From Candidatus Adlerbacteria bacterium (GTDB lineage Bacteria; Patescibacteriota; Minisyncoccia; Phycocordibacterales; SBAW01), in contig CAINNF010000009.1 in the NCBI GenBank assembly GCA_903851045.1, positions 6,525 through 70,524 on the forward strand: DNA of 64,000 nt. The letters are read 5' to 3'. The notes beneath the pieces were generated by a model. It did not search any database. It was not told the origin of the DNA and was given only the letters and a program-made list of their open reading frames with translations. Below, one piece after another: positions 28,365 to 50,641 of this stretch. Positions within the stretch are counted from its first letter, which is position 1; each line of letters starts with the position of its first letter. The translations under genes were made by a program, and so were the position numbers.

Positions 28365-29867
28365 CTATTCCTTGCGAGGAAAGAGGTTTTCGGGTTTTTT
28401 GTTCTCGCGGATTGCCGTGAGGATTTTTTCTGAAGTCGTTGGCATAAAAGGAGCCAGGTCAGAAGCTATTGCATGCAATTCTCTTGCAAGTTTTTGTATA
28501 ATTTCCAGCGCCTTCTGCTTTTCTTGCTCATCATTCGATTTAACACCAGTGAATGGCTTTTCGAGCGTAATCATAGCATCACAGTGTCCGATACGAGTCC
28601 AAATAGCGTCCATCGCCTTATTCAATTCAAAGTCGCTGACGTATTGTGCAACCGAAGAATCGTTCTTAACTGCTCCAATGATTTCTACAGAAGTAGCAAA
28701 ATGTGCGGCAGTCATAGTCATGATGCGTGCAGCAAGATTACCCAACCCATTTGCAAGGTCGGCATTGTATAGTTCTTTAAAGCGCTCCATCGTAAAATCA
28801 CTGTCTTCGAACGGTGAGATGTGGCGCGCGAGGTAGTAGCGTAGGGCATCAACGCCATACTCCTGTACGATAGCGAATGGTTCTATGACATTGCCGAGCG
28901 ACTTGGACATCTTCTGACCGCCGCTCGTGATGAAGCCATGGTAGACGACCTTCTGGGTTTGGGGAAGTTTAGCCGACATGAGCATCGCCTGCCACATGAC
29001 GGACTGGAAGCGCACCTGGTCCTTGCCCGCGACCTGCACCGTCTCGCCATTAACCCAAAACTTTTCAAACAAACCCTCAGAGGCAGGCTCGCCCGCCGAA
29101 GCTTCAGCGGAGGAGGGCCAGTCGAGCGTCGAAATATAGTTGGTGAGCGCATCGAACCACACGTACATCACCTGCGACTCGTCCCCTGGCACCGGGATAC
29201 CCCAGCTCATGCGCGCGGTCTCGCGCGAGATGCTGAAATCTTCGAGCCCACCCTCGACGAACTTGATCGCCTCTTCGCGACGCCAGTCGGGCAGCACCAC
29301 ACTCGCATTCGAAAGGTAGGTGAGCAACTGCGATTGATACCGACTCAGACGGAAGAACCAATTCTCTTCTTCGATCTCGACCGGCTCCATGTTGGGATGG
29401 TTGGGGCACTTACCCCCTATTAAGTCTCCCTCTTTGAGGAACATCTCATCGCCAACGCAGTACAACCCTTTATATTTCTTCTTATAGATGTCGGGATTCC
29501 CCTGTTCGTCGACGTTCGCCGCGCATCGTCGCCACATCTCCTGCGCCGCTTTGATGTGCTTTTCGTCCGTGGTGCGGATAAAGACCAGGTCATCAGAAAG
29601 ACCGAGGCCTTCCTTTAGCTTGCGAAATTGCCCCGCATAGTAGTCGACATACGCCTGTACATCTTGCCCCTGTTCGTTCGCCTTTTGGAAGATCTTTTGG
29701 CCGTGCTCGTCGGTGCCAGTGTTAAAAAAGACGTTCTCTCTCCCGCGCACCAGTTGCTGGTAGCGGGCCTGGATGTCCGCATGCACGATCTCCAGCGCGA
29801 AGCCGATGTGCGGGTCGGCGTTCACATACGGGAGCGTGGTCGTGATGTAAAAAGGTTTTTGTGCCAT
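28365..29867 (-). CDS. metG: Methionyl-tRNA synthetase
   Basis: HIGH-region 'PYVNADPHIGFA' and 'KMSKSLGN'. Confidence 0.9.
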   Translation of the reverse strand: MAQKPFYITTTLPYVNADPHIGFALEIVHADIQARYQQLVRGRENVFFNTGTDEHGQKIFQKANEQGQDVQAYVDYYAGQFRKLKEGLGLSDDLVFIRTTDEKHIKAAQEMWRRCAANVDEQGNPDIYKKKYKGLYCVGDEMFLKEGDLIGGKCPNHPNMEPVEIEEENWFFRLSRYQSQLLTYLSNASVVLPDWRREEAIKFVEGGLEDFSISRETARMSWGIPVPGDESQVMYVWFDALTNYISTLDWPSSAEASAGEPASEGLFEKFWVNGETVQVAGKDQVRFQSVMWQAMLMSAKLPQTQKVVYHGFITSGGQKMSKSLGNVIEPFAIVQEYGVDALRYYLARHISPFEDSDFTMERFKELYNADLANGLGNLAARIMTMTAAHFATSVEIIGAVKNDSSVAQYVSDFELNKAMDAIWTRIGHCDAMITLEKPFTGVKSNDEQEKQKALEIIQKLARELHAIASDLAPFMPTTSEKILTAIRENKKPENLFPRKE

Positions 29868-31005: not shown

Positions 31006-32406
31006 CTACGCCTTTATAGCCTCGGTTAAAAGTGCTGAAAGGTCTTCAATTGCTATGCGCTTCTGCTCCCCCGTGTCGCGATCGCGGACGGTGACGGTAT
31101 CTGCAAGGTCGGGGTTCTCTCCGAGCGTGTCGAAGTCGATAGTGATGCAAAACGGCGTACCAATCTCGTCCTGGCGTCGATAGCGCTTGCCAACGTTGCC
31201 ATTGTCGTCCCATTCCACACGCAAGTCTTTTTTGAGCATCGTGTACACCTCGCGCGCTTTCGCGACTAACTCTGGTTTATTTTTGAGCAACGGGAACACA
31301 GCCGCCTTAATTGGTGCGAGCTTCGCTGGGAAGCGCATCACCACGCGCGTATCATCCCCCATCGTGTCTTCGTGATAGAACTCGGTCATGACTGCGAGGA
31401 AGGTGCGGTCAAGGCCAACTGATGTCTCGACTATATGCGGTACGAAGCGCTCCTTCGTCGCTTCGTCAAAGTACGAGAGGTCAGTGCCCGAGAACTTTTG
31501 ATGCTGCGAGAGGTCGTAGTCACCGCGCGCGTGCACACCTTCCATCTCTTTGAAACCGAACGGGAATTTGTATTCGATATCCCACGCAGCCTTTGCATAG
31601 AAGACGAGGTTCTCATGCTCGTGCCATTTAAGATTCTTTGGGTCGAAGCCGAGGTCAAGATAATACTGCCAGCGCTTCGCTCGCCATTCTTCGTAGACTC
31701 GCATCTCGTCTTCCGGCCGTACGAACATTTGCATCTCCATCTGCGTCAGCTCACGCAGGCGGAAGATATATTGGCGCGGTGCGATCTCATTACGAAAAGC
31801 TTTCCCTATTTGCGCGATACCGAACGGTATCTTCACTCGTGCAGAGTCGAGCACATTCTTAAAATTGATATAGATACCCTGGCACGTCTCACCACGCAGG
31901 TAGGTCGGCTCTTTCGTCCAGTCACCGGTAAAGTTACCAAGATTCGATTGGACCAACAGATTGAACCGTCGCACTTCGGTAAACTCTTTTTTGCCACACA
32001 CCGGACAGGTGATGGTTGCACGGTGTGTATCAAAGACCGTATTAATCTCTTCGATCGACATTTTCTCGTCGGCAAAAGCGCCAACCGCCTCGAGCAAATG
32101 GTCCGCGCGCGAGCGTGTATGACACGACTTACACTCAACGAGTGGATCGGAAAAACCGCTCACATGACCCGATGCTTCCCACACCTTTGGGTTCGTAAAG
32201 ATCGCGGAGTCGAGTCCGACGATATTGTTTTCGTGTTGTACCATCGCTCGCCACCATGCGGCACGGATATTATTCGCGAGCTCGACGCCATAGGGTCCGT
32301 AGTCGTACGTACCGGGAAAGCCCCCGTAAATCTCGGAGCCTTGGTAGACGAAACCGCGTCGTTTGCACAACGAGACGATCTTCTCCATGAGTGATTCTTC
32401 TGCCAT
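31006..32406 (-). CDS. glyQS: Glycyl-tRNA synthetase, class II alpha2 type
   Basis: 'YQGSEIYGGFPGTYDYGPYG', class II motifs and a C-terminal anticodon-binding domain. Confidence 0.9.
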   Translation of the reverse strand: MAEESLMEKIVSLCKRRGFVYQGSEIYGGFPGTYDYGPYGVELANNIRAAWWRAMVQHENNIVGLDSAIFTNPKVWEASGHVSGFSDPLVECKSCHTRSRADHLLEAVGAFADEKMSIEEINTVFDTHRATITCPVCGKKEFTEVRRFNLLVQSNLGNFTGDWTKEPTYLRGETCQGIYINFKNVLDSARVKIPFGIAQIGKAFRNEIAPRQYIFRLRELTQMEMQMFVRPEDEMRVYEEWRAKRWQYYLDLGFDPKNLKWHEHENLVFYAKAAWDIEYKFPFGFKEMEGVHARGDYDLSQHQKFSGTDLSYFDEATKERFVPHIVETSVGLDRTFLAVMTEFYHEDTMGDDTRVVMRFPAKLAPIKAAVFPLLKNKPELVAKAREVYTMLKKDLRVEWDDNGNVGKRYRRQDEIGTPFCITIDFDTLGENPDLADTVTVRDRDTGEQKRIAIEDLSALLTEAIKA

Positions 32407-34411: not shown

Positions 34412-36922
34412 TTATTCCTCCCGATACCAAGCGCTCGCAGTTGCATCCCAGCGCACGCGCATACCTGTGTATGCATTGAGCGTCGAACCGTTGGTCCAGC
34501 CGTTCACGGTCGGAGAGAACGTGAGCGAGGTGATAGACCCCGCGTAGTTGGAGAATTGGATTGACTGACCATCCGCAAGTGCGGTTGGGAGTGTCACAGT
34601 AGATGCGCTTACGGTGGTGCCTTGGGTGAATCGTACGAGGGAGGTGTTAGCAGGGACGATGTAGGTGGCACCGAGCGATTGGCGAACACCGCTACCATCT
34701 ATCTGAGCACCAACGGATACGACGGGTATTCCCGAGGTACCGCTCAAGCCGAGCTGCACAGAGCTTGGGCCAATAACAACAGACGACGCGTTATTACCGC
34801 TAGAGAACGACAGTGTCGTCGCATTAGTCCATGTCAGATTTACACTTAGTCCGGTAGCGCCCCACGTCTTCGCCATCATGTCTGGCGACAACGTTACCGG
34901 ATTACTCGGTGCAACACCCGTGACAACAGGTGCACGATAGAGCGTGACGGATGCAACGCTTCCGCCCGATAACGTCAGTAGGTACACGCCCCCATACGCA
35001 TCAGTCGCGTAGTAAGTATTTCCATCTGTCGGCCATGAAGAACCAGCAGATGCGATTGATGAAAACGCACCAACCTCTCCACCTGAACTTATGTTCAAAC
35101 CATTTCCTGTATCAGAGATTGTTCCACGTCCAACCGACACTGCGCCCGTTCCGCTCACAACGAAGCCTTGTGAACGAAACGCTGAGTCCGAGAAGGTCGG
35201 CAGGAGAAGATCTATTCCTCGAAACGCCGATGATGGTGACGAATTGTAGTTATATCCAAGCTCACCTCTTAAGACAGTGCCAGCCGTTGTTGACAAGGGC
35301 CACAGACCACCGCGACCACCAACCTCAAAAATCGACTTCCACGGAGCTGTTGAACCTCCTTGGTCGGAAATTTTTTCAGCGACATCCTCCATTGAACCAG
35401 AAACAGCGTTCGACGAAGTATGTACAATCAGCATGCCTGACGACGAAAGATACGAGGAACCTGTATTCGCCGCAACATCGACCTCGATACCCGATCCGCC
35501 TCCGCCGTTGACATACCCTGACCCAAAACTCAGAAATGGATTAAACGCCGTGGCAGACCCCTTCGCGGTTGACGGTGTAAGACCTGTCCCACCAAATGAA
35601 TTATTCAGAGTGACACTATTCTGGCCACCTTCAATAATCCCACCGTTTGCAACGGCACCCGTCTGAATTAAATTTGTTAGGATTCCAACTCTTCCACCAG
35701 AATATCCCGCCCCACCAAAGTTATGATCGATTTGTATATCAGAAATCATCTGAGGAGCGCTCGCTGTATCGGAGTTAACAGTCCAGTGCGTCCACCCAGC
35801 AATTCCCGCATTAGTGATTGTTCCATTTAAGTTTACATTTGGACTAAAGATAGACGATAGTGCAATATTATTAGTCTGAGGCAGAGTAACATTTCCTGTT
35901 GATAGAGCTCCTGTAACCGTGGTGGTCGCGTTCAACTTTATTGAAGCTGTGCCCTGTGGGCTTATGTTTATATTAGAACCATTCGGGGTCGAAATGGTTG
36001 TATTGCCACCAGCCGCCACAGCTGTCCCAAGACTAATACTGGTGCCAACTGAGAAGGTTCCGAGACTCGTAATACTACCGCCGGTAATAGCGACGGCGTT
36101 TGCCGCTTGTGTCGCAATAGAACCGAGACCAAGGTTCGTGCGTGCCGTCGATGTACTAATAAGATCAGACAAGTTATTTTGCGGAAGTAGGCCTCCCCCT
36201 CCTACCCCACAGTCCGCCCCTGTGCCGGTGACGTTACCGTTAGCGTCTGTATGCAGACACTGCGAAGAACCAAGGATGTTGGAGAGCTTAAGCCCGGGGA
36301 TAGTGGTCGAGCCGGTGAGCGTACCACCCGAGAGTGGCAGGTATGGTAACGCAGGAATGTCAGAGGCTGTGAGCCCTGAGACTCCGTTCACCTGTGCGCC
36401 AGAGATGGTGACACCTTGGAGATTGTTAATCTTCTGTGACGCAGCGATAGCGCCCCAGAGTCCGCCGCCTGCCATGGTAGAGGTGGCGCCGTAGAGTTGT
36501 TGGTGCACCGAGTCGAGTGTCTGCTGTATAGCAGCGTTCACTGCTTGTTGCAGCTGTGCTTGGGTAACAAGTCCTGAGGCGTTGGTGGTTGTTGTGAGCG
36601 TGGCGGGTGTTGGCGCGGTGGTTGATACACCACCAGTGAGTGACTGCATGAGCGCGAGTGTTTGTGTGCCGACCGAGCCAGTGCTCGTGAGACCGTGTGC
36701 GGCTTGAAATGCTCTGACCGCTTTGATAGTGGCAGGGCCGTACGTACCGTTTGGTGTGGTGGTGAGATAGCCTTGGGTGACGAGGAACTGCTGAAGTGCT
36801 AGAACGTCAGCGCCACTACTGCCTTTGGTGAGGGTGTGGGTGATGGTGGATGCGAAGGTGAACGCGGGGGTGGATAGTAAGAAAAGGATAACGGCAAATA
36901 CCAACACTGACTTGTGGTGCAT
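34412..36922 (-). CDS. Large secreted surface protein with an N-terminal PG_binding_1-like module and a Gly/Thr/Ser-rich repetitive body
   Basis: Signal/TM 'VLVFAVILFLLSTPAFTFA', then 'GSSGADVLALQQFLVTQGY...GPATIKAVRAFQAAHGL'. The preferred start is the ATG at 36922 (MHHKS...); the ORF track extends to 37000. Confidence 0.7.
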   Translation of the reverse strand: MHHKSVLVFAVILFLLSTPAFTFASTITHTLTKGSSGADVLALQQFLVTQGYLTTTPNGTYGPATIKAVRAFQAAHGLTSTGSVGTQTLALMQSLTGGVSTTAPTPATLTTTTNASGLVTQAQLQQAVNAAIQQTLDSVHQQLYGATSTMAGGGLWGAIAASQKINNLQGVTISGAQVNGVSGLTASDIPALPYLPLSGGTLTGSTTIPGLKLSNILGSSQCLHTDANGNVTGTGADCGVGGGGLLPQNNLSDLISTSTARTNLGLGSIATQAANAVAITGGSITSLGTFSVGTSISLGTAVAAGGNTTISTPNGSNINISPQGTASIKLNATTTVTGALSTGNVTLPQTNNIALSSIFSPNVNLNGTITNAGIAGWTHWTVNSDTASAPQMISDIQIDHNFGGAGYSGGRVGILTNLIQTGAVANGGIIEGGQNSVTLNNSFGGTGLTPSTAKGSATAFNPFLSFGSGYVNGGGGSGIEVDVAANTGSSYLSSSGMLIVHTSSNAVSGSMEDVAEKISDQGGSTAPWKSIFEVGGRGGLWPLSTTAGTVLRGELGYNYNSSPSSAFRGIDLLLPTFSDSAFRSQGFVVSGTGAVSVGRGTISDTGNGLNISSGGEVGAFSSIASAGSSWPTDGNTYYATDAYGGVYLLTLSGGSVASVTLYRAPVVTGVAPSNPVTLSPDMMAKTWGATGLSVNLTWTNATTLSFSSGNNASSVVIGPSSVQLGLSGTSGIPVVSVGAQIDGSGVRQSLGATYIVPANTSLVRFTQGTTVSASTVTLPTALADGQSIQFSNYAGSITSLTFSPTVNGWTNGSTLNAYTGMRVRWDATASAWYREE

Positions 36923-36983
36923 GGTGGTAGTATGGCACCCCCCCCCGCGAGGGGGCAAGGTGTGTATACACAAGACACGCTTG

Positions 36984-37565
36984 CTACAACCCCGTCGCAT
37001 TGAGCGACTCGTTTATCGTACGAGTCAGCATGCGGCGAGACGCCTGGACTCTCTGTACCATGTCTGGCGCGGTGACCGCATCACATAGGTATGGTGCGAG
37101 TTCCGACGTTTGGGGCAGATACCCTAAGTGCGCGAGCATCCGTAGGACGAGCACATACTCGATACTCTCCGCCTCGATCGGATCCTCGACCTGTATCACC
37201 TGTCCGAACCCTTCCAGGAGCGTCTCGTACAGTTCCGGCACCGCCTCCTCGCCATGTATCAATCGAAGTAATAAACGGAGCATCTTCCCTATTTGCGTAC
37301 GACGTGCGGCGCTCGTCGCCGAAAGCGAACGGGAGATGCCTTCGACCCCGGTCAACTTCCACTCGTGGCGCCCACGCACGAGGGAGAACCGAGCGATCGT
37401 GAGCGGTTCCAGACCGAACCGGAGCTTCGACACCTCCTTGCGAGCCGAACGAGCTGCGACACGCACGAGCCCTAGTTCGCGCGTCAGGATCATCACGAGC
37501 GTGTTCGACTCTCCCACGCTACGCTTCCCTACCACCAACCCTTCGGTGACGTGGATCACATGCAT
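36984..37565 (-). CDS. recO: DNA repair protein RecO
   Basis: OB-fold N-terminus 'GLVVGKRSVGESNTLVMILTRELGLVRVAARSARK...FGLEPLT' and 'YVLVLRMLAHLGYLP'. Directly downstream of ileS. Confidence 0.7.
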   Translation of the reverse strand: MHVIHVTEGLVVGKRSVGESNTLVMILTRELGLVRVAARSARKEVSKLRFGLEPLTIARFSLVRGRHEWKLTGVEGISRSLSATSAARRTQIGKMLRLLLRLIHGEEAVPELYETLLEGFGQVIQVEDPIEAESIEYVLVLRMLAHLGYLPQTSELAPYLCDAVTAPDMVQRVQASRRMLTRTINESLNATGL

Positions 37566-37567
37566 AG

Positions 37568-40500
37568 TTACCGCGTGAGCGTACAGCTCGCAGGGAATGG
37601 GAAGTTCGTTGGCTCGTCGGTCGAGGATGATCCGATGACCAGATCGGAGAGGTTGGTATCGCGCACAAAGGTGTCCTTGAAGCGTGTGAAGAATGTCGCG
37701 CCTTCGCCGTTGGTATCGACACGCAGCACAGGCCGATCGTTGATCGTCAGGTTGGTGTTCTTTCGTAGTTCTTGTATCGAGCGCACGAAGTCACGCACCA
37801 ACCCTTCCTCCTGCAACTCCGGCGTGAGCGTCGTATCGAGCTCGGGTTCTCCAGGAGTTGCCGTATCCAGCTTGATCCCAGGACCTCCTGGCTCTACACC
37901 ACTTTTGAAGACGACTTCCTTCACGTTGATCTCGTCGCGCAGAATATCCAAAAATTCTTGGGGCAGTGGTGGCTTCTCTGTGAAATGCTTGATCGTCAAT
38001 GCGCGTAATGGTTGCCGGATCTTGATCCCCGCCATCTCTCTCTGTTTCAAAGCCATGGTCGCGAAGCTGCGCACATACGACATACGGGTCAACACCTCTT
38101 GATCGATCACGATCTCGGTCGGCCAATCGCACAAGTGTACACTTTGCTGATCGTAGGACTTTTTGACACGCAAGTAGAGGTCTTCGGCATAGAACGGCAT
38201 GACGGGGGCCATCACTTTCGCAACCACCACGAGCACTTCTCGCAAGGTCGCGAGCGCTTCCCCTTTGTCGGTTCCCTCTTCCTTGAAGCGGTCACGTGAC
38301 CGTCGCACGTACCAGGTCGATAGGTCGTCGATAAAGCTCGCGAGTGGTCGTGCCGCCGCATCGAGCTCGTAGCTTTCGAACCCTTTCGTCGCATCCCGCA
38401 CCAACTCTCCGAGTCGAGAGATGATCCAACGGTCGAGCACATGTGTGCCGACGCTCGTCGTATCCGCGGCGTCGGTGGTCGCATACAGCTCATAGAACGA
38501 GCGAACATTGTCCAGGCGCATAAGCAGTTTCTTGGTGACCTCCTCGACGCCGCGCGCCGCGAAGCGCAGATCTTCGCCGCGAATGACGGCGGACGACAAG
38601 AGATAGTAGCGCAGCGAGTCCGCACCGAACCGCTCCACCAACTCCATCGGGTCGGGGTAGTTCTTCAGTTTCTTGCTCATCTTGCGACCATCTTCGGCGA
38701 GCACGAGTCCGTTGGTCACGACCGACTTGTAGGGACTTTTGCCGAACAGCCCGACACCAAGCACGATGAGCGAGTAGAACCAACCACGCGTCTGGTCGAT
38801 GCTCTCGGCGATGAAATCCGCAGGATACCCTTTCGCGAAGAAGCCGAGCGTACCTTTCGGGTTAAAGACGTCGGTCTCCATCGGGTAATGGTGCGACGCG
38901 TACGGCATCGAACCGGATTCGAACCAGCAGTCAAAGACATCCGTAACACGCTTCCATTCACCGTCTAAACCGCCACCCAACTGCACCTCGTCGATGAACG
39001 GGCGGTGCAGGTCGAGCATGAAGTGTTCGTTGTGCGGATACGCCGTGAACATGAGTTCCATCCATCCGGCGGTCGGCAGGAGCTTGCGCCGATGCTCGTC
39101 GTGCAGTTCGTGACGGGGTGTGCGCTGCGCTACCGCCTGCATGAGCCATGCGGGGATCTCGTGCGTGACGATGAGCACCCGCTTGCCGCTATAGCGACGC
39201 TCGATATCGAAGAGAAAATCACCCACGCGGGCGAAGACCTGGTCGTACGTCTCTCCCCCAACGACGGTGCGATTGAAGCGGTCCGAGAGCGTCGCAAACA
39301 CCGCATGCCACTCCGCCTGCGGCGCGTTATTCTTCTCACCGAAGTGGGTCTCGGACAACCGCGTATCCGTCATGATGCTGGATGGCGAAAGACCAAGCTC
39401 TTCGCACACGATGCGCGCGGTCTCTTGGGTGCGCGTCAAAGGCGAGGCGACGATAATATCGACGCCGAGCAGCGCCAGTTCTTTAGCGGTCGCTCGTGCC
39501 TCGGCCCGACCGACGTCGGTCAAGTGGTTCTCTATATCGTTCGTCGAGTTCACGAAGTTCTCCGCATTACTGCGAGCTTCGCCGTGGCGCATCACCAAGT
39601 AACGATTGCCCGACTTGCGCACCATCGAAAGCAGCTCGTCGACGGACCCGATCGCCTTCAACTCCTTGGTCTTGGTGTTCCGCCATACCGGGATAGGCGC
39701 ACCCCAGTAGCGACTGCGCGATATCGCCCAATCCGGCGCGCTTTCGAGCAGGTTGTGGAAGCGCCCACGCCCGACATGCTCGGGCACCCAGCGAACTTTT
39801 TTATTCTCTTCGAGGAGATCTTGTTTGAGGTCCTGGACGTTCACGAACCACGAGGTCGCTGCCCAGTTGAGGAGCGGCGTGTCGCAGCGCCAGCAGTGCG
39901 GGTAGGAGTGCGTGATCTTCTCTTGTTTGAAGAGCAACCTCTTTGCATCCAAATACGCGACTATCTTCGCATCGGTCTCCATGTGGCGACCTTTTGGTTT
40001 GACTGGTAGGTGTTCGAAATCCTTAACCGTCGAGATAAAGCGACCATCATCGGTCACGTGGTGGATGAGCGGGATCTTCTCCTTTTGTGCCAACTCCAAG
40101 TCCTCTGCACCGTACGCGGGTGCCAAGTGGACGATGCCCGTGCCATCCTGCAGTGTCACGTAGTCGGCAGCGTAGACCTTCCACGCGTGCGTCTTATGCT
40201 TGTGCACCAAATCTTTAAAGTATGGGAACGGCGGTTCGTACGACTTCCCTACCAAATCCTTCCCCAAAATTTCGCCCTCGATCTTCACCGCATCACTACC
40301 AAAAACTTTAACCACAAGCTCTTTGGCGACCACCACGAACCCATCATCGGTGCGCACCTTCACATACGTCGCGCCTGCGTTGACCGCGGCGGCAGAGTTG
40401 CCCGGTAGCGTCCATGGGGTCGTCGTCCAGATGAGGAGCGAGGTGCCCGGCTCGTCGACAAGCGGCAACTTCACCGTCACTGCGATGTCGGGGATGTCTT

Positions 40501-41131
40501 GGTACGCCTGCGCCACTTCGAAGTTCGAGAGCGTCGTCCCGCAACGCGGGCACAGATGCATCGCCTTGAACCCCTCATAGATCAAATTCTTGTCATACAA
40601 CGTCTTGAACGACCACCACACCGACTCGGTGTAGGTCGCGTCCATCGTCTTGTAGTCATGCTCCATGTCTGCCCAACGACCCATGCGCGGGATGATGCGA
40701 CGCCACTCGTCCGCATAGCGAAGCACCGCGCCCTGCGCCTTGGCGTTGAACTGCTGGATACCGTACTCCTCGATGTCGCGCTTGGACTTAAATCCTAACT
40801 CCTGCTCGATCTGATTCTCCAGCGGCAAACCGTGGCAGTCCCACCCCCACTGTCGTGGCACGTGGTAGCCCTGCATGGTCCGATAGCGCGGAATAGCGTC
40901 CTTGATAGCGCTCTGGAGCAGGTGGCCGTAGTGCGGCAACCCCGTGGCGAACGGCGGCCCATCATAAAAAACATACTCACCCTTGGGCGCAGGCTTCGCG
41001 AGCGACTTCTCGAAGATATGGTGATTGTCCCAGAACTTCAGAACCTCCTCTTCTCGAGCAGCAAAAGGCGACTTCGCCACATACGGCGGCTTCTCCCGCT
41101 CCTCCCCGCCCTGTTTTAAATCGTCTACCAT
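37568..41131 (-). CDS. ileS: Isoleucyl-tRNA synthetase carrying an internal histidine-phosphatase (PGAM-like) domain insertion
   Basis: 'PFATGLPHYGHLL' (HIGH), 'KMSKKLKN' (KMSKS) and CP1/editing blocks. The start is placed at the ATG at 41131 (MVDDLKQGG...). The extra 95 aa up to 41416 are not IleRS-like. Confidence 0.9.
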   Translation of the reverse strand: MVDDLKQGGEEREKPPYVAKSPFAAREEEVLKFWDNHHIFEKSLAKPAPKGEYVFYDGPPFATGLPHYGHLLQSAIKDAIPRYRTMQGYHVPRQWGWDCHGLPLENQIEQELGFKSKRDIEEYGIQQFNAKAQGAVLRYADEWRRIIPRMGRWADMEHDYKTMDATYTESVWWSFKTLYDKNLIYEGFKAMHLCPRCGTTLSNFEVAQAYQDIPDIAVTVKLPLVDEPGTSLLIWTTTPWTLPGNSAAAVNAGATYVKVRTDDGFVVVAKELVVKVFGSDAVKIEGEILGKDLVGKSYEPPFPYFKDLVHKHKTHAWKVYAADYVTLQDGTGIVHLAPAYGAEDLELAQKEKIPLIHHVTDDGRFISTVKDFEHLPVKPKGRHMETDAKIVAYLDAKRLLFKQEKITHSYPHCWRCDTPLLNWAATSWFVNVQDLKQDLLEENKKVRWVPEHVGRGRFHNLLESAPDWAISRSRYWGAPIPVWRNTKTKELKAIGSVDELLSMVRKSGNRYLVMRHGEARSNAENFVNSTNDIENHLTDVGRAEARATAKELALLGVDIIVASPLTRTQETARIVCEELGLSPSSIMTDTRLSETHFGEKNNAPQAEWHAVFATLSDRFNRTVVGGETYDQVFARVGDFLFDIERRYSGKRVLIVTHEIPAWLMQAVAQRTPRHELHDEHRRKLLPTAGWMELMFTAYPHNEHFMLDLHRPFIDEVQLGGGLDGEWKRVTDVFDCWFESGSMPYASHHYPMETDVFNPKGTLGFFAKGYPADFIAESIDQTRGWFYSLIVLGVGLFGKSPYKSVVTNGLVLAEDGRKMSKKLKNYPDPMELVERFGADSLRYYLLSSAVIRGEDLRFAARGVEEVTKKLLMRLDNVRSFYELYATTDAADTTSVGTHVLDRWIISRLGELVRDATKGFESYELDAAARPLASFIDDLSTWYVRRSRDRFKEEGTDKGEALATLREVLVVVAKVMAPVMPFYAEDLYLRVKKSYDQQSVHLCDWPTEIVIDQEVLTRMSYVRSFATMALKQREMAGIKIRQPLRALTIKHFTEKPPLPQEFLDILRDEINVKEVVFKSGVEPGGPGIKLDTATPGEPELDTTLTPELQEEGLVRDFVRSIQELRKNTNLTINDRPVLRVDTNGEGATFFTRFKDTFVRDTNLSDLVIGSSSTDEPTNFPFPASCTLTR

Positions 41132-41260
41132 AATAAAAAGACTATACCACAAAAGGGTTTTCAGAATAGGTCGACCATCCCGCCACACCACCCTACGGCG
41201 GGATTGACAAATGGTATTATATTGGTGTATAATATATCCAGACTGGCAATCCGGCCAGAA

Positions 41261-41551
41261 ATGGAGGTTCTCGTGGAAATCAACTACGCTCTCGGTTTGG
41301 TGACGGTTTTTGTAACCATCGCGGCGCTGCTCCCCGTTCTTTGGCGGGTACTGCCGGGAACCTGGCGGTTCGTGAGTCCCATTGTTTGCGTTGCGGTCAT
41401 CTGCTACGCCTTCCATCTGGGCTGGCCGCTGATCTGGTATTGGCAGCCGGTCGACGGGAGCGTGGGTGATTCATCCATAATCGCCATTCTCGCCTACGTG
41501 CTTGCGATGTTAATGGGCGCGCGGATGGCGGCGGAGTGCCCTTTTTTTTAA
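41261..41551 (+). CDS. Small membrane protein, hypothetical
   Basis: Two or three TM helices, a GGAGG near the start, and a terminator downstream. Confidence 0.4.
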   Translation: MEVLVEINYALGLVTVFVTIAALLPVLWRVLPGTWRFVSPIVCVAVICYAFHLGWPLIWYWQPVDGSVGDSSIIAILAYVLAMLMGARMAAECPFF

Positions 41552-41626: not shown

Positions 41627-43552
41627 CTACATCTCCTCTGGGGCGGGAATGCCCAGGAGGTGGAGGCCCTTCCCCATCGTGTTGGCGAAGGCTTCGGTGA
41701 GGAGCAAACCGTACTCTTCGTCTTTGCTCCCTATCACGCGACCGCTGGCGTACCAGGAATTAAAAAGTGAGGCGAGTTCGGTGAGGTAGGTGGTGATGTA
41801 GTGCGGCTCGAGCTCGCCGACGGAACGTGTCACTACTTCAGAGAAATGCAGAAGTACACGTTCGAGGGAGCCGGCCGGTGGCGTATTGTATGCTTCCGCT
41901 GGGCCCGTTGTTGACGCTGCATCATCCAACACGCCACCGGCCGGCACCGGGGACTCCGATTTCGCAGCGTCCCTGTGATGACCTGCAGCGGAGACATCGA
42001 AGTCCCCGGCGCCGTTTGCAGATCTTTTAGCAGCGCGCAACAACGATAGCGCGCGAGTGTGCGCATACTGCAAGTACGGCCCTGAGTCGCCTTCTATAGA
42101 GAGTGACTTCTCGGGGTCAAAGACGATATCCTTGCCGCTCCCCTGCTTGAGCACCGCATACTTGATAGCGCCGACGGCAATTTGCTGTGCCGTCATCTCC
42201 GGGTCCTTCAAATTGCGCTCACCGATCTTCACCTTCGCCGCATCCTGCAAATCTGCGAGAAGCGACTCGCCCGTGATGACATTGCCTTTGCGCGACGACA
42301 TCTTCCCCTCGGCAAAACGCATCATGCCATGGGAGACATGCGTCGTCTTGTCCGCGACATCCTTCACCTCAGGAATTTCCCGAGCCGCCGCGAGCATCAC
42401 CTTAAAATATTCGTTCTGTTCGTTGGCAGTAATAGTGATAGAGAGATCAAAATCCGCTGCTTCTTTTTTAAGCTGCAACAGTCCTAAGTCTTTTGCTTCG
42501 TAGGTTGGATTACCCTGCGATGTTATGAACACTCGAGTATGAAGCCCAACCTTCTCGCCAGGAAAAACAATAGCGCCGTTGCTTTCTTGAAAAACATCGC
42601 CAACATGCTCGCGCACAAGCGCTGAGCCTTTCGGGAAAGACTTGCTTTCAAAAAAATAGAAATCGAATTTTGTACCAAGCGCTTTATAGATTTCTTCAAA
42701 GTGTGCAAGGCTTAGTCTTTTGCCAGCTTCGTATATGTTTGAAATCAGAGTCTCTCTAGGATCATTTATTGGTTCATCAGCTAGAATTTTATATATAAAA
42801 CCATTTATTTTATCTATTTCTATCTTTTTTTCTGGATCAGTTTCATAGGCAGTAGCACCTAAGACATACCACTTACCGAGTAATTGGGCGGGCTTTTCTG
42901 TTGTTAATCCTACTTGAAGGATATTCCCAATCTGCTCCATGTCTTCTTGAGAAGCACCCCAAATAGCCTTCGCCACATGTGGACCAACATCGCCTTGGTA
43001 GTTCGCACGGATGACCTTCGCGCCCGCTTGTTCGAGGATGCGCGCGATCGACTCGCCGATGGTGTTGCTCATCAGGTGGCCGATATGGAACTCCTTGAAT
43101 GGGTTCGGGTCGGTATACTCGACCATCACGGTCTGGCCGTCGACGTCGGAGAGGATCTTTGGGAACTCACCCTTAGCAGCCTTCGCCACTTCTCCCACTA
43201 TCGCATCGCGCGTAAGGAAGAAGTTGATAAAGCCAGGCCCCGCGATTTCGATCTTCGCAACTCCTCCAAAAGAAACTTTCTGAAGAAAATAGTCTGGCCC
43301 GCCTGGCTGGCCGCCAGCCTGGACGGGAGACCCGAGGACTTTTTTGGAAGAAAGTTTCTTTTGAAGGAGTTCTCGCACCATCTCCGCCACCGCGCGCGGA
43401 GGCTTGCCGAGGTGCTTGGCCGCCGCGAGCGCAGCGTTGGTAGCGTAGTCACCGTGCGAGAGGTCGCCCGGGCGCTCCACCACAAAAGCCGCATCGGTCA
43501 CTCCGAGCTCGGCGAGGGCATGTTCTATAGCTTGTGCAATCTCCTGCTGCAT
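41627..43552 (-). CDS. argS: Arginyl-tRNA synthetase
   Basis: 'HIGHLMSNTIGESIARIL' and the C-terminal DALR domain ending 'GLHLLGIPAPEEM'. It has a low-complexity insert of about 45 aa near the DALR domain. Confidence 0.9.
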   Translation of the reverse strand: MQQEIAQAIEHALAELGVTDAAFVVERPGDLSHGDYATNAALAAAKHLGKPPRAVAEMVRELLQKKLSSKKVLGSPVQAGGQPGGPDYFLQKVSFGGVAKIEIAGPGFINFFLTRDAIVGEVAKAAKGEFPKILSDVDGQTVMVEYTDPNPFKEFHIGHLMSNTIGESIARILEQAGAKVIRANYQGDVGPHVAKAIWGASQEDMEQIGNILQVGLTTEKPAQLLGKWYVLGATAYETDPEKKIEIDKINGFIYKILADEPINDPRETLISNIYEAGKRLSLAHFEEIYKALGTKFDFYFFESKSFPKGSALVREHVGDVFQESNGAIVFPGEKVGLHTRVFITSQGNPTYEAKDLGLLQLKKEAADFDLSITITANEQNEYFKVMLAAAREIPEVKDVADKTTHVSHGMMRFAEGKMSSRKGNVITGESLLADLQDAAKVKIGERNLKDPEMTAQQIAVGAIKYAVLKQGSGKDIVFDPEKSLSIEGDSGPYLQYAHTRALSLLRAAKRSANGAGDFDVSAAGHHRDAAKSESPVPAGGVLDDAASTTGPAEAYNTPPAGSLERVLLHFSEVVTRSVGELEPHYITTYLTELASLFNSWYASGRVIGSKDEEYGLLLTEAFANTMGKGLHLLGIPAPEEM

Positions 43553-46047: not shown

Positions 46048-46476
46048 TTATATCCCGGTCGTGCCGAACCCGCCGCGGTCGGGCGTGTCGAGCGAGTCGA
46101 CCTCCTGCCACGACACACGGTCAAAGGGCAGTAGCATCATCTGCACCACACGTTCACCACGCTTCACCTCGACGGAAGCGTCAGTGAAGTTGTAGAGCGG
46201 CGCCTTGTATTCGTCCTGATCGCCCGAGTAGTCTTCGTCGCCGATACCGACCGCGTTGGCGGTCATGAGTCCCCGCTTATGGAGCGAGGAGCGCGCCGCC
46301 AAAAAAACGAAGTACCCCTTGGGTGGCTTCACGGCGATATTGAGCGACACCATCGCGACCGACTTCGCTGGCACGATGACATCCTCGCGCACCACACAAT
46401 CCATCGCCGCCGCACCGGTCGTTTTATACTCCGGCAGCGGCAACCCCTTGTCGAAGCGTTTTATCTGGACATCCAT
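46048..46476 (-). CDS. dut: dUTP diphosphatase
   Basis: 142 aa, 'GAAAMDCVV', 'ARSSLHKRG', and a C-terminal 'RGGFGTTG'. Confidence 0.9.
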   Translation of the reverse strand: MDVQIKRFDKGLPLPEYKTTGAAAMDCVVREDVIVPAKSVAMVSLNIAVKPPKGYFVFLAARSSLHKRGLMTANAVGIGDEDYSGDQDEYKAPLYNFTDASVEVKRGERVVQMMLLPFDRVSWQEVDSLDTPDRGGFGTTGI

Positions 46477-48417: not shown

Positions 48418-49308
48418 ATGAAACCATACGCCGAGCGCACGCCCGATTATCAGTATCGTCAATTACTGGAGCGGATCATGAACGAAGGTCGCGACACCAT
48501 GCCCATACATGGCATTGGTGCACGTGGCGTGGTCGGGCACCAAATCCGCTACACGATGGAGAACGGCTTTCCGCTCATGACCGAGCGCGACTTGGCACGC
48601 ACCTTCCCCGGCGCACTGGGCGAACACATCGGCTTTCTCAACGGTGCACGAACGCTCGAGGATCTCAAAAAATATGGCATGCCCGCGATATTTTGGGACC
48701 GGTGGGTCACCAAGGAGAAGTGCGAGATTTTCGGGCTGCCCGAAGGTGACCTTGGTGACGGTTCCTATGGCGCCGCCTGGGGCAGCTTCCCCACTAAAGA
48801 GGGCGAGCCGTTCAACCAGATCGCGCACGTGGTGCAGCAGATCAAAGAGCGACCCTATTTGCGCACGCACTTCGTGTCACCATGGATACCGCAGTACACG
48901 CTCCAACACGAAGGTCTGACGCGCAAAGTCGTCGTGGCGCCGTGCCATGGATGGATGCATATCTTCACTTACCCCGACACGAAAGAGTTGGTCATCCACC
49001 ACTTCCAGCGCAGCGCCGATGTGCCGATCGGTGTCGTCTCCAACATCGTACAGTATGCGGCGTTCGGTATGATGCTCGGCCAGGTCATCGGGTATACCAT
49101 GAAGGAGTTGGTGCATACGTTCTCGGACGCACACATCTACCACAACCAGTTCGACGCGGTGCAAGAACTTCTTGCGCGCGAACCAAAGCCCTTCCCCACC
49201 GTGACGCTTGACCCGACCATCACCAACATATTCGACTTTCGCCCGTCTCACTTCACACTTACCGATTACGAACCACACCCCAAAATGGTCATACCGACCG
49301 CGATATAG
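48418..49308 (+). CDS. thyA: Thymidylate synthase (ThyA family, divergent)
   Basis: Catalytic 'VVAPCHGW', 'FQRSADVPIGVVSNIVQY' (R166/S167/D169/N177 equivalents), 'SDAHIYHNQ', and a folA gene nearby. The N-terminal Arg-loop (RTGTGT) is not conserved. Confidence 0.8.
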   Translation: MKPYAERTPDYQYRQLLERIMNEGRDTMPIHGIGARGVVGHQIRYTMENGFPLMTERDLARTFPGALGEHIGFLNGARTLEDLKKYGMPAIFWDRWVTKEKCEIFGLPEGDLGDGSYGAAWGSFPTKEGEPFNQIAHVVQQIKERPYLRTHFVSPWIPQYTLQHEGLTRKVVVAPCHGWMHIFTYPDTKELVIHHFQRSADVPIGVVSNIVQYAAFGMMLGQVIGYTMKELVHTFSDAHIYHNQFDAVQELLAREPKPFPTVTLDPTITNIFDFRPSHFTLTDYEPHPKMVIPTAI

Positions 49309-49310
49309 CT

Positions 49311-49793
49311 ATGAGAAAAAAAGATTTCGTCGACATCAAGGCCGCTGGGGACCGAGTCGAATACGCAACGGTGCTTACAAAGATCAAGAAGGATGGGGTA
49401 TGTCCGTTCTGCCCCGAACACTTCAAGTACCATACGCGCCCGATACTACGCGATGGGAAGTATTGGCTCGCGACCGAGAACATGGCTCCGTACACGGGGA
49501 CGAAACACCACTTCTTACTCCTACACAAAAAACATATCGAACATGTGACTGACATCTCGCCCAAGGCGTGGCAAGAACTCCTCTCACAGATACAGTGGCT
49601 GTGTGAGACGTACAAACTTCCTGCAGGGAGCTTCTTTATGCGATTCGGCGATAAGCGATACACTGGCGCGAGCGTCACCCAACACCTCCATGCACAGATG
49701 TTTATCGGCTCCCCAAAAAGCAAAAAGACCTACCCACTCACTCCTATACTTGGGTACAGCACTAAAAAATACGTCCCGCCGCAGAAAAGCTAA
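49311..49793 (+). CDS. HIT/GalT-like nucleotide hydrolase or transferase with an H-x-H-x-Q motif
   Basis: 'CPFCPEH...' Cys pair and 'TQHLHAQMF' (H-phi-H-phi-Q). Its start lies 2 nt after the thyA stop. Confidence 0.5.
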   Translation: MRKKDFVDIKAAGDRVEYATVLTKIKKDGVCPFCPEHFKYHTRPILRDGKYWLATENMAPYTGTKHHFLLLHKKHIEHVTDISPKAWQELLSQIQWLCETYKLPAGSFFMRFGDKRYTGASVTQHLHAQMFIGSPKSKKTYPLTPILGYSTKKYVPPQKS

Positions 49794-50641
49794 AGCCCCT
49801 GCACAAGGATGATCTCTACGCCAGCGTTTTTAAGGATCCCTTCCGCATCGAGACGCGAGTACCCTTGCGCGTAATACACATGTGAAATGCCTGAGCGCGC
49901 GATGAGGAATGCGCAGTTGATACAGGGGAAGGTGCTCGAATAGAGCGCTGCCCCGACGAGCGACACCCCTTCGCGAGCAGCTCGCGCGACTATACCAGCC
50001 TCCGCATGCATCGAAATGTAGAGGTCAGGACGCTCGCCGAAGTCGACCGTCGTGCGCGGTGTACCAAAAATGTCGAGCGCGAGGTCCGAAGGAAAGTATG
50101 CGATGTGCGATGCAAATACGAGGACCTTGTCCCTCACCAACACCGCGCCTATCTGCCGCCACCAGTCGGCACTCTTCTCTCCCTCGTGCACAGCGGCGCG
50201 CATGAACGTGCGGTCGAGCTCCTCCACCGAGACGGTGCGGTCGGGTGGCACCTCGTTCTCTTTGTTGGAGAACACGCCATCCCAACGTAGGAATATGTTC
50301 TGCAGTGTCACCGAGGCGTCCCGTGGTATGTGTTTTTCGGCGAAGTCTCGTGACACATCCTCGTCGGGGAGGACGATCTGTCCGAACGGAGACAACACTT
50401 CGACATCGGCAAGTTCGATGACCGACGCCTGATACCCGAGCGACCGAAGAGCGGCGACGGCGCTCATAGGGTCGAGCGCGCGGATGTCTCGGTTCAGCCG
50501 CGGATACGCATCGATGAAACTCTTCCCTAATACGAAGACGGTGGCGCCGGGGTGCGCGTTGAAAAAAGAGATATACCCCGCATGGAGCGCTGGCACGTAT
50601 GCGACGATCGCTTTATTGATTATGGAATTTGTCGAGTGCAT
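49790..50641 (-). CDS. dCMP/cytidine deaminase domain (C-terminal) fused to an uncharacterised N-terminal domain of about 140 aa
   Basis: Zn-binding 'SMHAEAG' and 'TFPCINCA' lie in the C-terminal 140 aa. The N-terminal half has no recognised motif. It overlaps the upstream gene by 29 nt. Confidence 0.7.
   Translation of the reverse strand: MHSTNSIINKAIVAYVPALHAGYISFFNAHPGATVFVLGKSFIDAYPRLNRDIRALDPMSAVAALRSLGYQASVIELADVEVLSPFGQIVLPDEDVSRDFAEKHIPRDASVTLQNIFLRWDGVFSNKENEVPPDRTVSVEELDRTFMRAAVHEGEKSADWWRQIGAVLVRDKVLVFASHIAYFPSDLALDIFGTPRTTVDFGERPDLYISMHAEAGIVARAAREGVSLVGAALYSSTFPCINCAFLIARSGISHVYYAQGYSRLDAEGILKNAGVEIILVQGL

Follow-up and report, generated by a model that had tools for sequence, protein, structure and literature searches.

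Aminoacyl-tRNA synthetases are among the best-studied enzymes and, to our knowledge, additional catalytic domains are rarely seen within their cores and, in bacteria, almost none is known besides the editing domain. That domain, carried by connective peptide 1 (CP1), is a hydrolytic module nested in the Rossmann connective peptides and acts on the 3′ end of the tRNA. A curated precedent for another enzymatic domain inside a bacterial isoleucyl-tRNA synthetase (IleRS) is the family ileS_w_GNAT (NF040702). Here, we describe an IleRS of Candidatus Adlerbacteria that carries a histidine phosphatase within its connective peptide 3 (CP3). Its gene, ileS, lies in a stretch of 64,000 nucleotides of contig CAINNF010000009.1 (assembly GCA_903851045.1, positions 6,525 to 70,524 of the forward strand), which was analysed as a whole and is called the window below; coordinates are those of the window unless another locus is named.

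The inserted domain has the fold of the compact branch-1 histidine phosphatases Rv2419c GpgP (4pz9), Hydrogenobacter PspA (4ij5), CobC (6nru and 6e4b), Bacillus PhoE (1h2e) and Rv3214 (2a6p). Like the insert, these enzymes are about 200 residues long, lack mutase-type extensions and carry the same catalytic residues; they differ in being free-standing enzymes with small-molecule substrates, none of them within a synthetase, and their sequences are 17–26% identical to it. Fusions of a histidine phosphatase to a nucleic-acid or nucleotide enzyme are known from the bifunctional RNase H/acid phosphatase (NF005567, Rv2228c type) and from mycobacterial MutT1 (Nudix + His_Phos). These are end-to-end fusions with other partners, and the match of the insert to MutT1 is marginal (E = 1e-4). 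The CP1 editing domain is an analogous nested module, unrelated to the insert in fold and chemistry. The same is true of the HD phosphoesterase domain of the Escherichia coli CCA-adding enzyme, a phosphatase on a tRNA 3′-end enzyme that has been proposed to heal blocked ends; here the analogy is one of function only.

No description of an IleRS–histidine phosphatase architecture or partnership was found in the full-text literature, in a search that covers few subscription journals. The sequences themselves are already public, the best relatives being labelled only ‘class I tRNA ligase family protein’ or ‘isoleucyl-tRNA synthetase’, and the partnership and its evolutionary pattern appear to be undescribed.

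The ileS gene and its product

Positions 37568..41416 of the reverse strand form a single unbroken open reading frame (ORF). The start of ileS was placed at the ATG at 41131 (MVDDLKQ), which matches the start MxDDxKQGGEE conserved in 60 relatives. The product has 1187 residues, as given in a preliminary description of this DNA against about 1000 expected, and insert-less relatives have indeed 946–976.

The protein scores 873 bits with the TIGR00392 (ileS) equivalog model, above the cut-off of 621.4 notwithstanding the insert, and remains under the cut-offs of the valS, leuS and metG models. It is a type-2 (eukaryote/archaeal-like) enzyme: its matches to 8wnd, 8c8v and 7d5c reach about 700 bits, versus 311 bits for the type-1 enzyme of S. 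aureus (1ffy), the closest solved structures are yeast-type IleRS and IleRS2, and a C-terminal DUF5915-type domain is present. With the MupA and MupB exception models it scores under cut-off. Membership of ileS_w_GNAT was considered and rejected (316 bits versus a cut-off of 1999), the window IleRS being without a GNAT domain; in that family the extra residues lie, by model offset, N-terminal to residue 318 of our protein.

In Pfam, the tRNA-synt_1 match (E = 7e-131) is split by His_Phos_1 and followed by Anticodon_1 and DUF5915. The limits of the IleRS parts listed in table 1 were set from motif positions, Pfam and alignment to solved IleRS, with domain names according to PMC7955072 and PMC7191050. 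The preliminary description had stated that the HIGH and KMSKS motifs and the editing domain are intact, and all of the motifs were located (HYGH, KMSKK, WTTTPWTLPGN and GTGIVHLAPAYGAED); residues H67, G69, H70, K817, M818 and K820 are invariant among 60 full-length relatives.

Table 1. Coordinates of ileS, of the parts and motifs of its product and of selected neighbouring genes in the window. The features of the inserted phosphatase are listed between the two IleRS parts.
Feature	Residues	Coordinates	Strand	Remarks
ileS	1-1187	37568..41131	-	1187-residue type-2 IleRS with embedded phosphatase; stop codon 37568-37570
IleRS, N-terminal part	1-503	39623..41131	-	first Rossmann half, CP core, CP1 editing, CP2, first part of CP3
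HYGH (HIGH motif)	67-70	40922-40933	-	
WTTTPWTLPGN (CP1 editing motif)	235-245	40397-40429	-	invariant in relatives
GTGIVHLAPAYGAED (CP1 editing motif)	330-344	40100-40144	-	invariant in relatives
CP3, first part		about 39623-39721	-	
SRYWGAPIPVWRN	473-485	39677-39715	-	IleRS block N-terminal of the insert
Inserted histidine phosphatase domain	504-704	39020..39622	-	complete branch-1 His_Phos fold in CP3 loop
LVMRHGEARSN	512-522	39566-39598	-	
RHG motif with predicted nucleophilic His	R515-H516-G517	39581..39589	-	R515, H516 invariant; G517 at least 90% in 60 relatives
Phosphate-pocket Arg (in SPLTRTQETA)	R567	39431..39433	-	invariant
Predicted proton donor (in RLSE)	E594	39350..39352	-	invariant
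Phosphatase lid/cap	about 595-626	39254..39349	-	variable; missing in some Adlerbacteria relatives
VLIVTHEIPAW	652-662	39146-39178	-	
Second catalytic-pocket His (in VTHEIPAW)	H657	39161..39163	-	invariant; then subfamily-specific P-x-W
IleRS, C-terminal part	705-1187	37571..39019	-	rest of CP3 (YPHN..DLHRPFIDEV), WFESG strand, KMSKK, anticodon-binding, DUF5915
DLHRPFIDEV	from 707	38984-39013	-	
CWFESGSMPYA	735-745			
KMSKK (KMSKS motif)	817-821	38669-38683	-	
argS (ArgRS)		41627..43552	-	upstream operon neighbour; Pfam, synteny
recO		36984..37565	-	downstream neighbour, anchors orthologous synteny; Pfam RecO_N/RecO_C
metG-like		28365-29867		label from sequence appearance only
glyS		31006-32406		
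dUTPase		46048-46476		
Thymidylate synthase		48418-49308		
Weak HIT-like protein		49311-49793		
dCMP deaminase-like protein		49790-50641		

A histidine phosphatase nested in CP3

Alignment to solved yeast-type IleRS matches residues 22–503 of the window protein to chain residues 9–491, and residues 705–1078 to 497–886; the insert of about 200 residues takes the place of a CP3 loop of about 5–8 residues. The spacing from WGxPxPxW to WFESG is 67–74 residues in insert-less IleRS versus about 263 here, the WGAPIPVWRN block closing at residue 485. The preliminary description had placed a branch-1 histidine phosphatase of about 200 residues at 39000–39630, between the WGAPIPVW and DLHRP blocks; Pfam, TIGR00392 and the alignment confirm it there, with the narrower limits given in table 1. 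In yeast IleRS, CP3 comprises residues 459–526, and the CP2–CP3 linker just ahead of it lines the pocket for the CCA end of the tRNA (PMC7955072). CP3 is the most variable IleRS subdomain, its topology differing among Candida, Thermus and Staphylococcus structures (PMC7191050).

PF00300 (His_Phos_1) matches residues 512–678 with E = 5.3e-31 and the excised insert with E = 2e-32, at 108–113 bits versus a gathering score of 21.7, and tRNA-synt_1 matches the flanks. Modelled alone by AlphaFold with an alignment, a 221-residue segment containing the insert gives a confident alpha/beta model (pLDDT 95.3, pTM 0.91), according to which the insert is predicted to fold independently of the synthetase. 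The nearest Foldseek neighbours of this model are GpgP Rv2419c, PspA, CobC and PhoE (E about 1e-13 to 1e-14), with a probability of 1.00 to many members of the family; the compact phosphatases named above are matched with E-values of 1e-12 to 3e-14 and a TM-score of about 0.7.

Among curated families, the best match of the insert is to the phosphatase half of NF005567, at 85 bits versus a cut-off of 326. Assignment as a cofactor-dependent phosphoglycerate mutase (dPGM) was rejected: the best dPGM model gives 79 bits versus a cut-off of 225, the other dPGM models match the N-terminal approximately 90 residues only, and dPGM proteins have about 250 residues with mutase extensions, the insert with about 190 being closer to the compact phosphatases. 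Scores with the models for CobC (63 bits versus a cut-off of 163), PspA (53 versus 350), GpmB (43 versus 261) and SixA (34 versus 74.5) are all too low.

Both signatures singled out in the preliminary description, the RHG motif LVMRHGEARSN and the second catalytic histidine in VLIVTHEIPAW, are present where it had quoted them. The catalytic set is complete, with R515, H516, G517, N522, R567, E594 and H657 each invariant or conserved to at least 90%. Across the 60 full-length relatives, only 16 of the 201 positions of the insert are invariant, a set that includes each of the six catalytic or pocket residues (hypergeometric P = 9e-8). Mean column conservation in the rest of the phosphatase domain is 0.57, versus about 0.8 in the synthetase core; in the junction linker it is 0.78. 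Because the catalytic residues are invariant while the rest of the domain varies more than the synthetase core, the insert appears to be under selection for catalysis. Every catalytic motif of both the synthetase and the phosphatase is intact in this single polypeptide and, as judged from its sequence, the protein is very likely bifunctional with an active phosphatase.

Enzymes of the histidine phosphatase superfamily work through a phospho-histidine intermediate, with a glutamate as acid/base. In the insert, His516 would attack a phosphomonoester or phosphoanhydride to form this intermediate, Arg515, Arg567, His657 and Asn522 would hold the phosphate and Glu594 would be the acid/base. A catalytically silent structural or regulatory module, sensing phosphate or a nucleotide and modulating IleRS, would be compatible with the replacement of the usual HG(G) after the second histidine by H-x-x-P-x-W, and with the position of the domain near the CP2–CP3 linker that lines the CCA pocket. 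However, pseudo-enzymes normally lose some of their catalytic residues, and the copies examined keep the set, including nucleophile and proton donor, so that a silent module is scarcely credible.

Distribution among related genomes

PF00300 is present in all of the best 120 full-length relatives (57–86% identity, 1022–1240 residues). These come from NCBI, JGI, ENA and Logan assemblies, and those that are named belong to Candidatus Adlerbacteria, Nomurabacteria, Paceibacterota or Minisyncoccia. When 1.84 billion cluster representatives were searched exhaustively with the insert only, 613 proteins were found at E ≤ 1e-10; among the top cluster-representative matches, about 97 domain instances are found at the insertion site of the window. 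Species-representative genome contigs were searched with a single protein as the query, which reached close (Adlerbacteria-type) relatives only; the closest copies are in metagenome-assembled genomes of Adlerbacteria. In these, the gene order is SHMT – membrane protein – argS – ileS with the phosphatase – recO – DUF11 protein – glyS. A ‘Rectinemataceae’ fragment (P0014, 47% identity to the window protein over 532 residues) on a 1.4-kb contig was considered as an occurrence beyond Patescibacteria and was set aside, as it is probably mis-binned.

The preliminary description had raised the question of an assembly chimera or a frameshifted gene. Some relatives are fragmented, and in two long-read-style contigs, L021 and L022, ileS is split into several ORFs. 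Nevertheless, the ORF of the window is unbroken, its GC content in the insert (0.60–0.61) is the same as in the flanks and continuous over the junctions, and the architecture recurs in at least 120 independent full-length proteins and in more than 120 independent assemblies. Among the latter are L021 and L022, which keep the phosphatase inside ileS despite their broken ORFs. The chance of an artefact is thus practically negligible. In L022 the breaks are probably due to indel errors in the assembly, because the adjoining argS is equally fragmented. In L021 (3337–6857 of a 733-kb contig), ileS with its phosphatase is found in four ORFs, with intact argS, recO and glyS nearby; its breakage is due either to a local run of sequencing errors or to decay of the gene.

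Two possible traces of a recent event were also discarded. The GC profile carries no signal of a recent horizontal insertion. Imperfect direct repeats of 17 nt lie on either side of the insert (38983–38999 and 39631–39647) and were considered as a target-site duplication; they encode FIDEV and SVDEL, and because both motifs exist, about 15 residues apart, in insert-less IleRS, the repeats are not a transposition footprint.

A free-standing counterpart beside ileS

Sister lineages within the Patescibacteria have free-standing homologues of about 190 residues, annotated as ‘histidine phosphatase family protein’ or ‘broad specificity phosphatase PhoE’. Examples are P0391 in GCA_041661545.1 (labelled Candidatus Staskawiczbacteria), P0388 and P0419. 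These proteins begin with MKLNNKYYxLRHG and end just past the last beta-strand, are 34–42% identical to the insert and have in common with it the H-x-x-P-x-W motif after the second catalytic histidine. They agree with the insert in subfamily, catalytic set, locus and length, and differ in having their own start and stop codons and, for the most part, an isoelectric point (pI) of about 10 versus 6.4. In a profile search of the free family, the best 120 matches are all 179–228 residues long, with source names of Staskawiczbacteria, Nealsonbacteria, Patescibacteria group or simply ‘bacterium’.

The free phosphatase gene adjoins an insert-less ileS in all seven divergent lineages examined, and in five of the seven loci it abuts ileS on the same strand, the two genes overlapping by up to 7 nt or being separated by up to 17 nt. 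The gene order is usually argS – phosphatase – (NUDIX) – ileS – ... – recO. The pairing withstands changes in its surroundings: in L020 argS is missing, yet the phosphatase gene and ileS overlap by 4 nt, and in L013 the pair is still present with a partner IleRS only 33% identical to that of the window. By contrast, a free-standing copy of the phosphatase is absent from the 64-kb window and from nine Adlerbacteria-type loci; the window has the order argS – ileS with the phosphatase – recO, and in L005 and L007–L009 argS directly abuts ileS. Free and embedded forms are mutually exclusive in the sampled loci.

The junctions of the insert match almost exactly the points at which the free ORF begins and ends: the free sequence ‘MKLNNKYY...GELREL(stop)’ aligns to ‘RKSGNRYL...GWMELMF’. 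We infer that the insert is the same protein as the product of the separate argS–ileS gene of sister Patescibacteria. The embedded state is probably derived, because the IleRS partnered with a free phosphatase keep two CP3 cysteine pairs, as in Thermus, which are lost in the insert-bearing family. The whole phosphatase ORF would have moved into the CP3 loop of ileS, nearly residue for residue, over a distance of about 1.5 kb downstream and with the reading frame kept, and the zinc-knuckle cysteines of CP3 would have been lost in the Adlerbacteria-type lineage. In a domain tree of embedded and free forms, the main free-standing family forms one clade; this tree is crude, with unreliable rooting and deep order, and some of its ‘free’ leaves are fragments.

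Other genes are found in the clusters with a free phosphatase. A 148-residue MutT-like NUDIX protein is encoded in L011 (6587–7033), L012 (987–1433) and L018 (3915–4361). Its gene directly follows the phosphatase gene in L011, where it separates it from ileS, and in L012, and lies two genes upstream in L018; the proximity recalls the Nudix + His_Phos fusion of mycobacterial MutT1. Apart from this protein, Pfam gave nothing informative on the small unannotated genes that travel with the phosphatase–ileS pair. L017 carries a bAvd accessory gene and a reverse transcriptase gene (RVT_1) at 9716–10567, about 1.3 kb downstream of ileS, a pair typical of diversity-generating retroelements.

Further insertion sites and additional copies

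In other lineages, the phosphatase family is present at three further IleRS sites, with up to three copies per IleRS. Site A′ lies after DLHRPxxD in CP3 (P0292 copy 2 and P0335 copy 1), site B just after WFESGSMPYAS (P0282 copy 1 and P0335 copy 2) and site C where the anticodon-binding domain begins (P0282 copy 2 and P0335 copy 3). The truncated protein P0248 (1161 residues) is a valyl-tRNA synthetase (ValRS), with 381–411 bits for valS models versus 199 bits for ileS, and contains four phosphatase copies, one or more of which precede the WGxPxP region. These sequences show multiple independent fusion sites of the family. The extra copies examined keep R-H-(G/A)-N-R-E-H, with the exception of an Asn-to-Ala change in P0248 copy 3. 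In proteins with two copies, the first copies cluster together in the crude tree and the second copies likewise, which suggests that the two-copy state is old and that both copies have been retained.

Domains of other families are also found in these enzymes. The truncated IleRS P0334 (1066 residues) contains an IS200-like Y1 transposase domain at 340–461, in the editing region, His_Phos_1 at 680–854 and a GNAT domain at 935–1063. In these bacteria, IleRS may act as a hot-spot for the insertion of domains in general.

Multiple sites, variable copy numbers, a second host protein (ValRS) and the in-frame transposase domain of P0334 are what might be expected of a selfish or mobile domain that spreads into essential genes, where it is hard to lose, without benefit to the host. 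This explanation seems most improbable, however, since the module lacks the features of a nuclease, recombinase or intein, its flanks carry no target-site duplication, the GC content is that of the flanks and inheritance is apparently vertical with conserved synteny. Moreover, strict conservation of the catalytic residues over deep divergence indicates selection for catalysis.

Lid, surface charge and possible substrates

The approximately 30-residue lid that follows RLxE is deleted in L006–L009, with the catalytic residues kept. Free and embedded forms differ in charge: the median pI is 9.8 and the median net charge +14 for the free forms (n = 113), versus 7.2 and 0 for the embedded domains (n = 185). 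At five of the seven loci, the approximately 190 residues of the free phosphatase have a net charge of +13 to +26, as high as or higher than that of the RNA-binding proteins IF3 (+12) and SmpB (+10) of L011; the NUDIX protein of L011 is acidic (−6), and the IleRS of these five loci are close to neutral (−3 to +6). AT-richness of the genomes is not the sole cause of the basic charge of the free forms. The positions that contribute most of the extra charge follow RHG, surround RLxE or belong to the lid and the C-terminus, near the active-site loops.

Because the free forms resemble RNA binders and the lid is dispensable, we lean towards a polyanionic substrate, that is, an RNA or nucleotide species linked to tRNA charging. 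Examples would be a phosphate or pyrophosphate that blocks the tRNA 3′ end, or a nucleotide by-product, and the embedded forms could borrow the tRNA binding of the synthetase itself. A substrate of the RNA or nucleotide type is quite possible, without our calling it probable, and tRNA-end repair in particular is unlikely.

Some members of the histidine phosphatase superfamily, such as SixA, PGAM5 and Sts-1, act on proteins, and HipA/HipT-type kinase toxins phosphorylate class I synthetases. The phosphatase could accordingly be directed against the synthetase or a translation factor, reversing inhibitory phosphorylation of this kind. There is a partial match to the SixA model, the lid deletion of L006–L009 opens the active site with the catalytic residues retained, and attachment in cis at several loops would suit self-repair. 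However, the SixA score is far under its cut-off, neither the window nor the sampled loci showed a kinase toxin, and the basic free forms fit an RNA partner better than a near-neutral IleRS. We therefore regard a protein phosphatase as very unlikely.

Origin and role of the phosphatase

Our favoured interpretation, which we hold to be fairly likely, is the insertion of a whole gene, that of a partner phosphatase in a synthetase operon, which would have given rise to a bifunctional enzyme with probably coupled activities. The phosphatase would be an accessory enzyme that works with the synthetase and not in unrelated metabolism. Functional coupling, taken by itself, is somewhat more credible than its absence. 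It is favoured because independent insertions at no fewer than four IleRS loops plus ValRS are hard to explain by adjacency alone, because the junction linker is strongly conserved and because the pairing of the phosphatase gene with ileS outlasts changes in the remaining neighbourhood.

Alternatively, an unrelated housekeeping phosphatase for small molecules (PhoE, PspA or CobC-like) may have been fused, by mere proximity within the argS–ileS operon, into permissive loops of the adjacent gene through local rearrangements, keeping its catalytic residues for a metabolic job of its own and not for IleRS. Several observations speak for this possibility and against coupling. The closest characterized and curated relatives (GpgP, PspA, CobC and PhoE, at most 25–26% identical) act on small molecules. 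IleRS may merely tolerate insertions, since CP3 is its most variable subdomain and P0334 also carries GNAT and Y1 transposase (Y1_Tnp) domains, and insertion into several different loops makes a fixed geometry with respect to the aminoacylation site less plausible. The genes recO and argS are likewise conserved neighbours without an obvious functional tie to ileS. Adjacency alone does not single out IleRS, because the free phosphatase gene is packed as tightly to argS as to ileS and because in L019 ileS is convergent to it, leaving it co-oriented with argS only. The free phosphatases of L013 and L018 are neutral or acidic, and the pI contrast is partly confounded by GC content (0.32–0.45 in the free-form loci versus about 0.57 here). 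The full-length AlphaFold model of the window IleRS, with a pTM of 0.58 and a patchy core, gave no inter-domain geometry. Finally, the direction of the change, insertion versus excision, rests on parsimony and is not settled by the tree.

A housekeeping enzyme nevertheless accounts poorly for the repeated in-frame insertion of one family into IleRS and ValRS, for the tight, strongly conserved junctions and for the persistence of the pair where the neighbourhood differs, as in L020; the high positive charge of most free forms would also be odd for a metabolic phosphatase. We consider it the main rival explanation, doubtful but to be taken seriously.

The idea of a coupled partner can be carried further, to a dedicated translation-repair enzyme of the Patescibacteria that frees tRNA 3′ ends, or the synthetase, of an inhibitory phosphate or pyrophosphate and so lets charging resume. 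The damage could stem from toxin kinases, pyrophosphokinases or nucleases, and selection for a phosphatase located at the synthetase would have driven its repeated insertion into IleRS (at least four sites) and ValRS. We regard this version as conceivable but rather unlikely.

Genomic context in the window

The window ArgRS (arginyl-tRNA synthetase) has 641 residues, versus 516–565 in most relatives; gaps in its Pfam coverage at residues 72–138 and 479–562 resemble low-complexity inserts, and GC content falls to 0.37–0.42 around 42400–43000, within argS. The spacer of about 495 bp between argS and ileS contains a strongly hydrophobic ORF of 115 residues (41204–41551, forward strand), to which Pfam gives no match; the spacer is missing in several relatives, whose argS abuts ileS. 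On the other side, a secreted-looking protein of 862 residues with an N-terminal peptidoglycan-binding domain (34412–37000, reverse strand) is encoded between recO and the gene for the DUF11 protein, which in L001–L004, L008 and L009 directly follows recO with no gene between. Four synthetase genes and a pyrimidine-salvage cluster are found within about 22 kb (28365–50641).

The 23S rRNA gene (3729–7220, reverse strand) has 3492 nt versus 2925 nt in the Rfam model. The approximately 570 extra nucleotides match no intron family at E < 0.01. Within the gene, at 4183–4270 on the reverse strand, there is a weak tRNA-like match (30.4 bits), for which ARAGORN gives a 4-base anticodon. No 16S rRNA gene was detected in the 64-kb window, the 23S–5S pair not being linked to one.

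Implications

Across a major group of bacteria, uncultured and ultra-small, IleRS has an apparently active second enzyme that is conserved either within its sequence or right next to it. The combination of a neighbour gene, a nested domain and independent insertions into several loops and into ValRS makes a strong ‘Rosetta stone’ argument for an undescribed partnership, and the window protein and its split counterparts form a ready-made pair for experiments. If the phosphatase is not coupled to the synthetase, the locus is a natural case of the insertion of a whole gene into a permissive loop, useful for the study of domain-insertion evolution and for synthetase engineering. If the two are coupled, the phosphatase would represent a new accessory step in tRNA charging or repair, in minimal genomes where each retained gene is informative. 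Were the translation-repair interpretation true, the phosphatase would join CP1 as a hydrolytic module for quality control nested in class Ia synthetases, the second of its kind.

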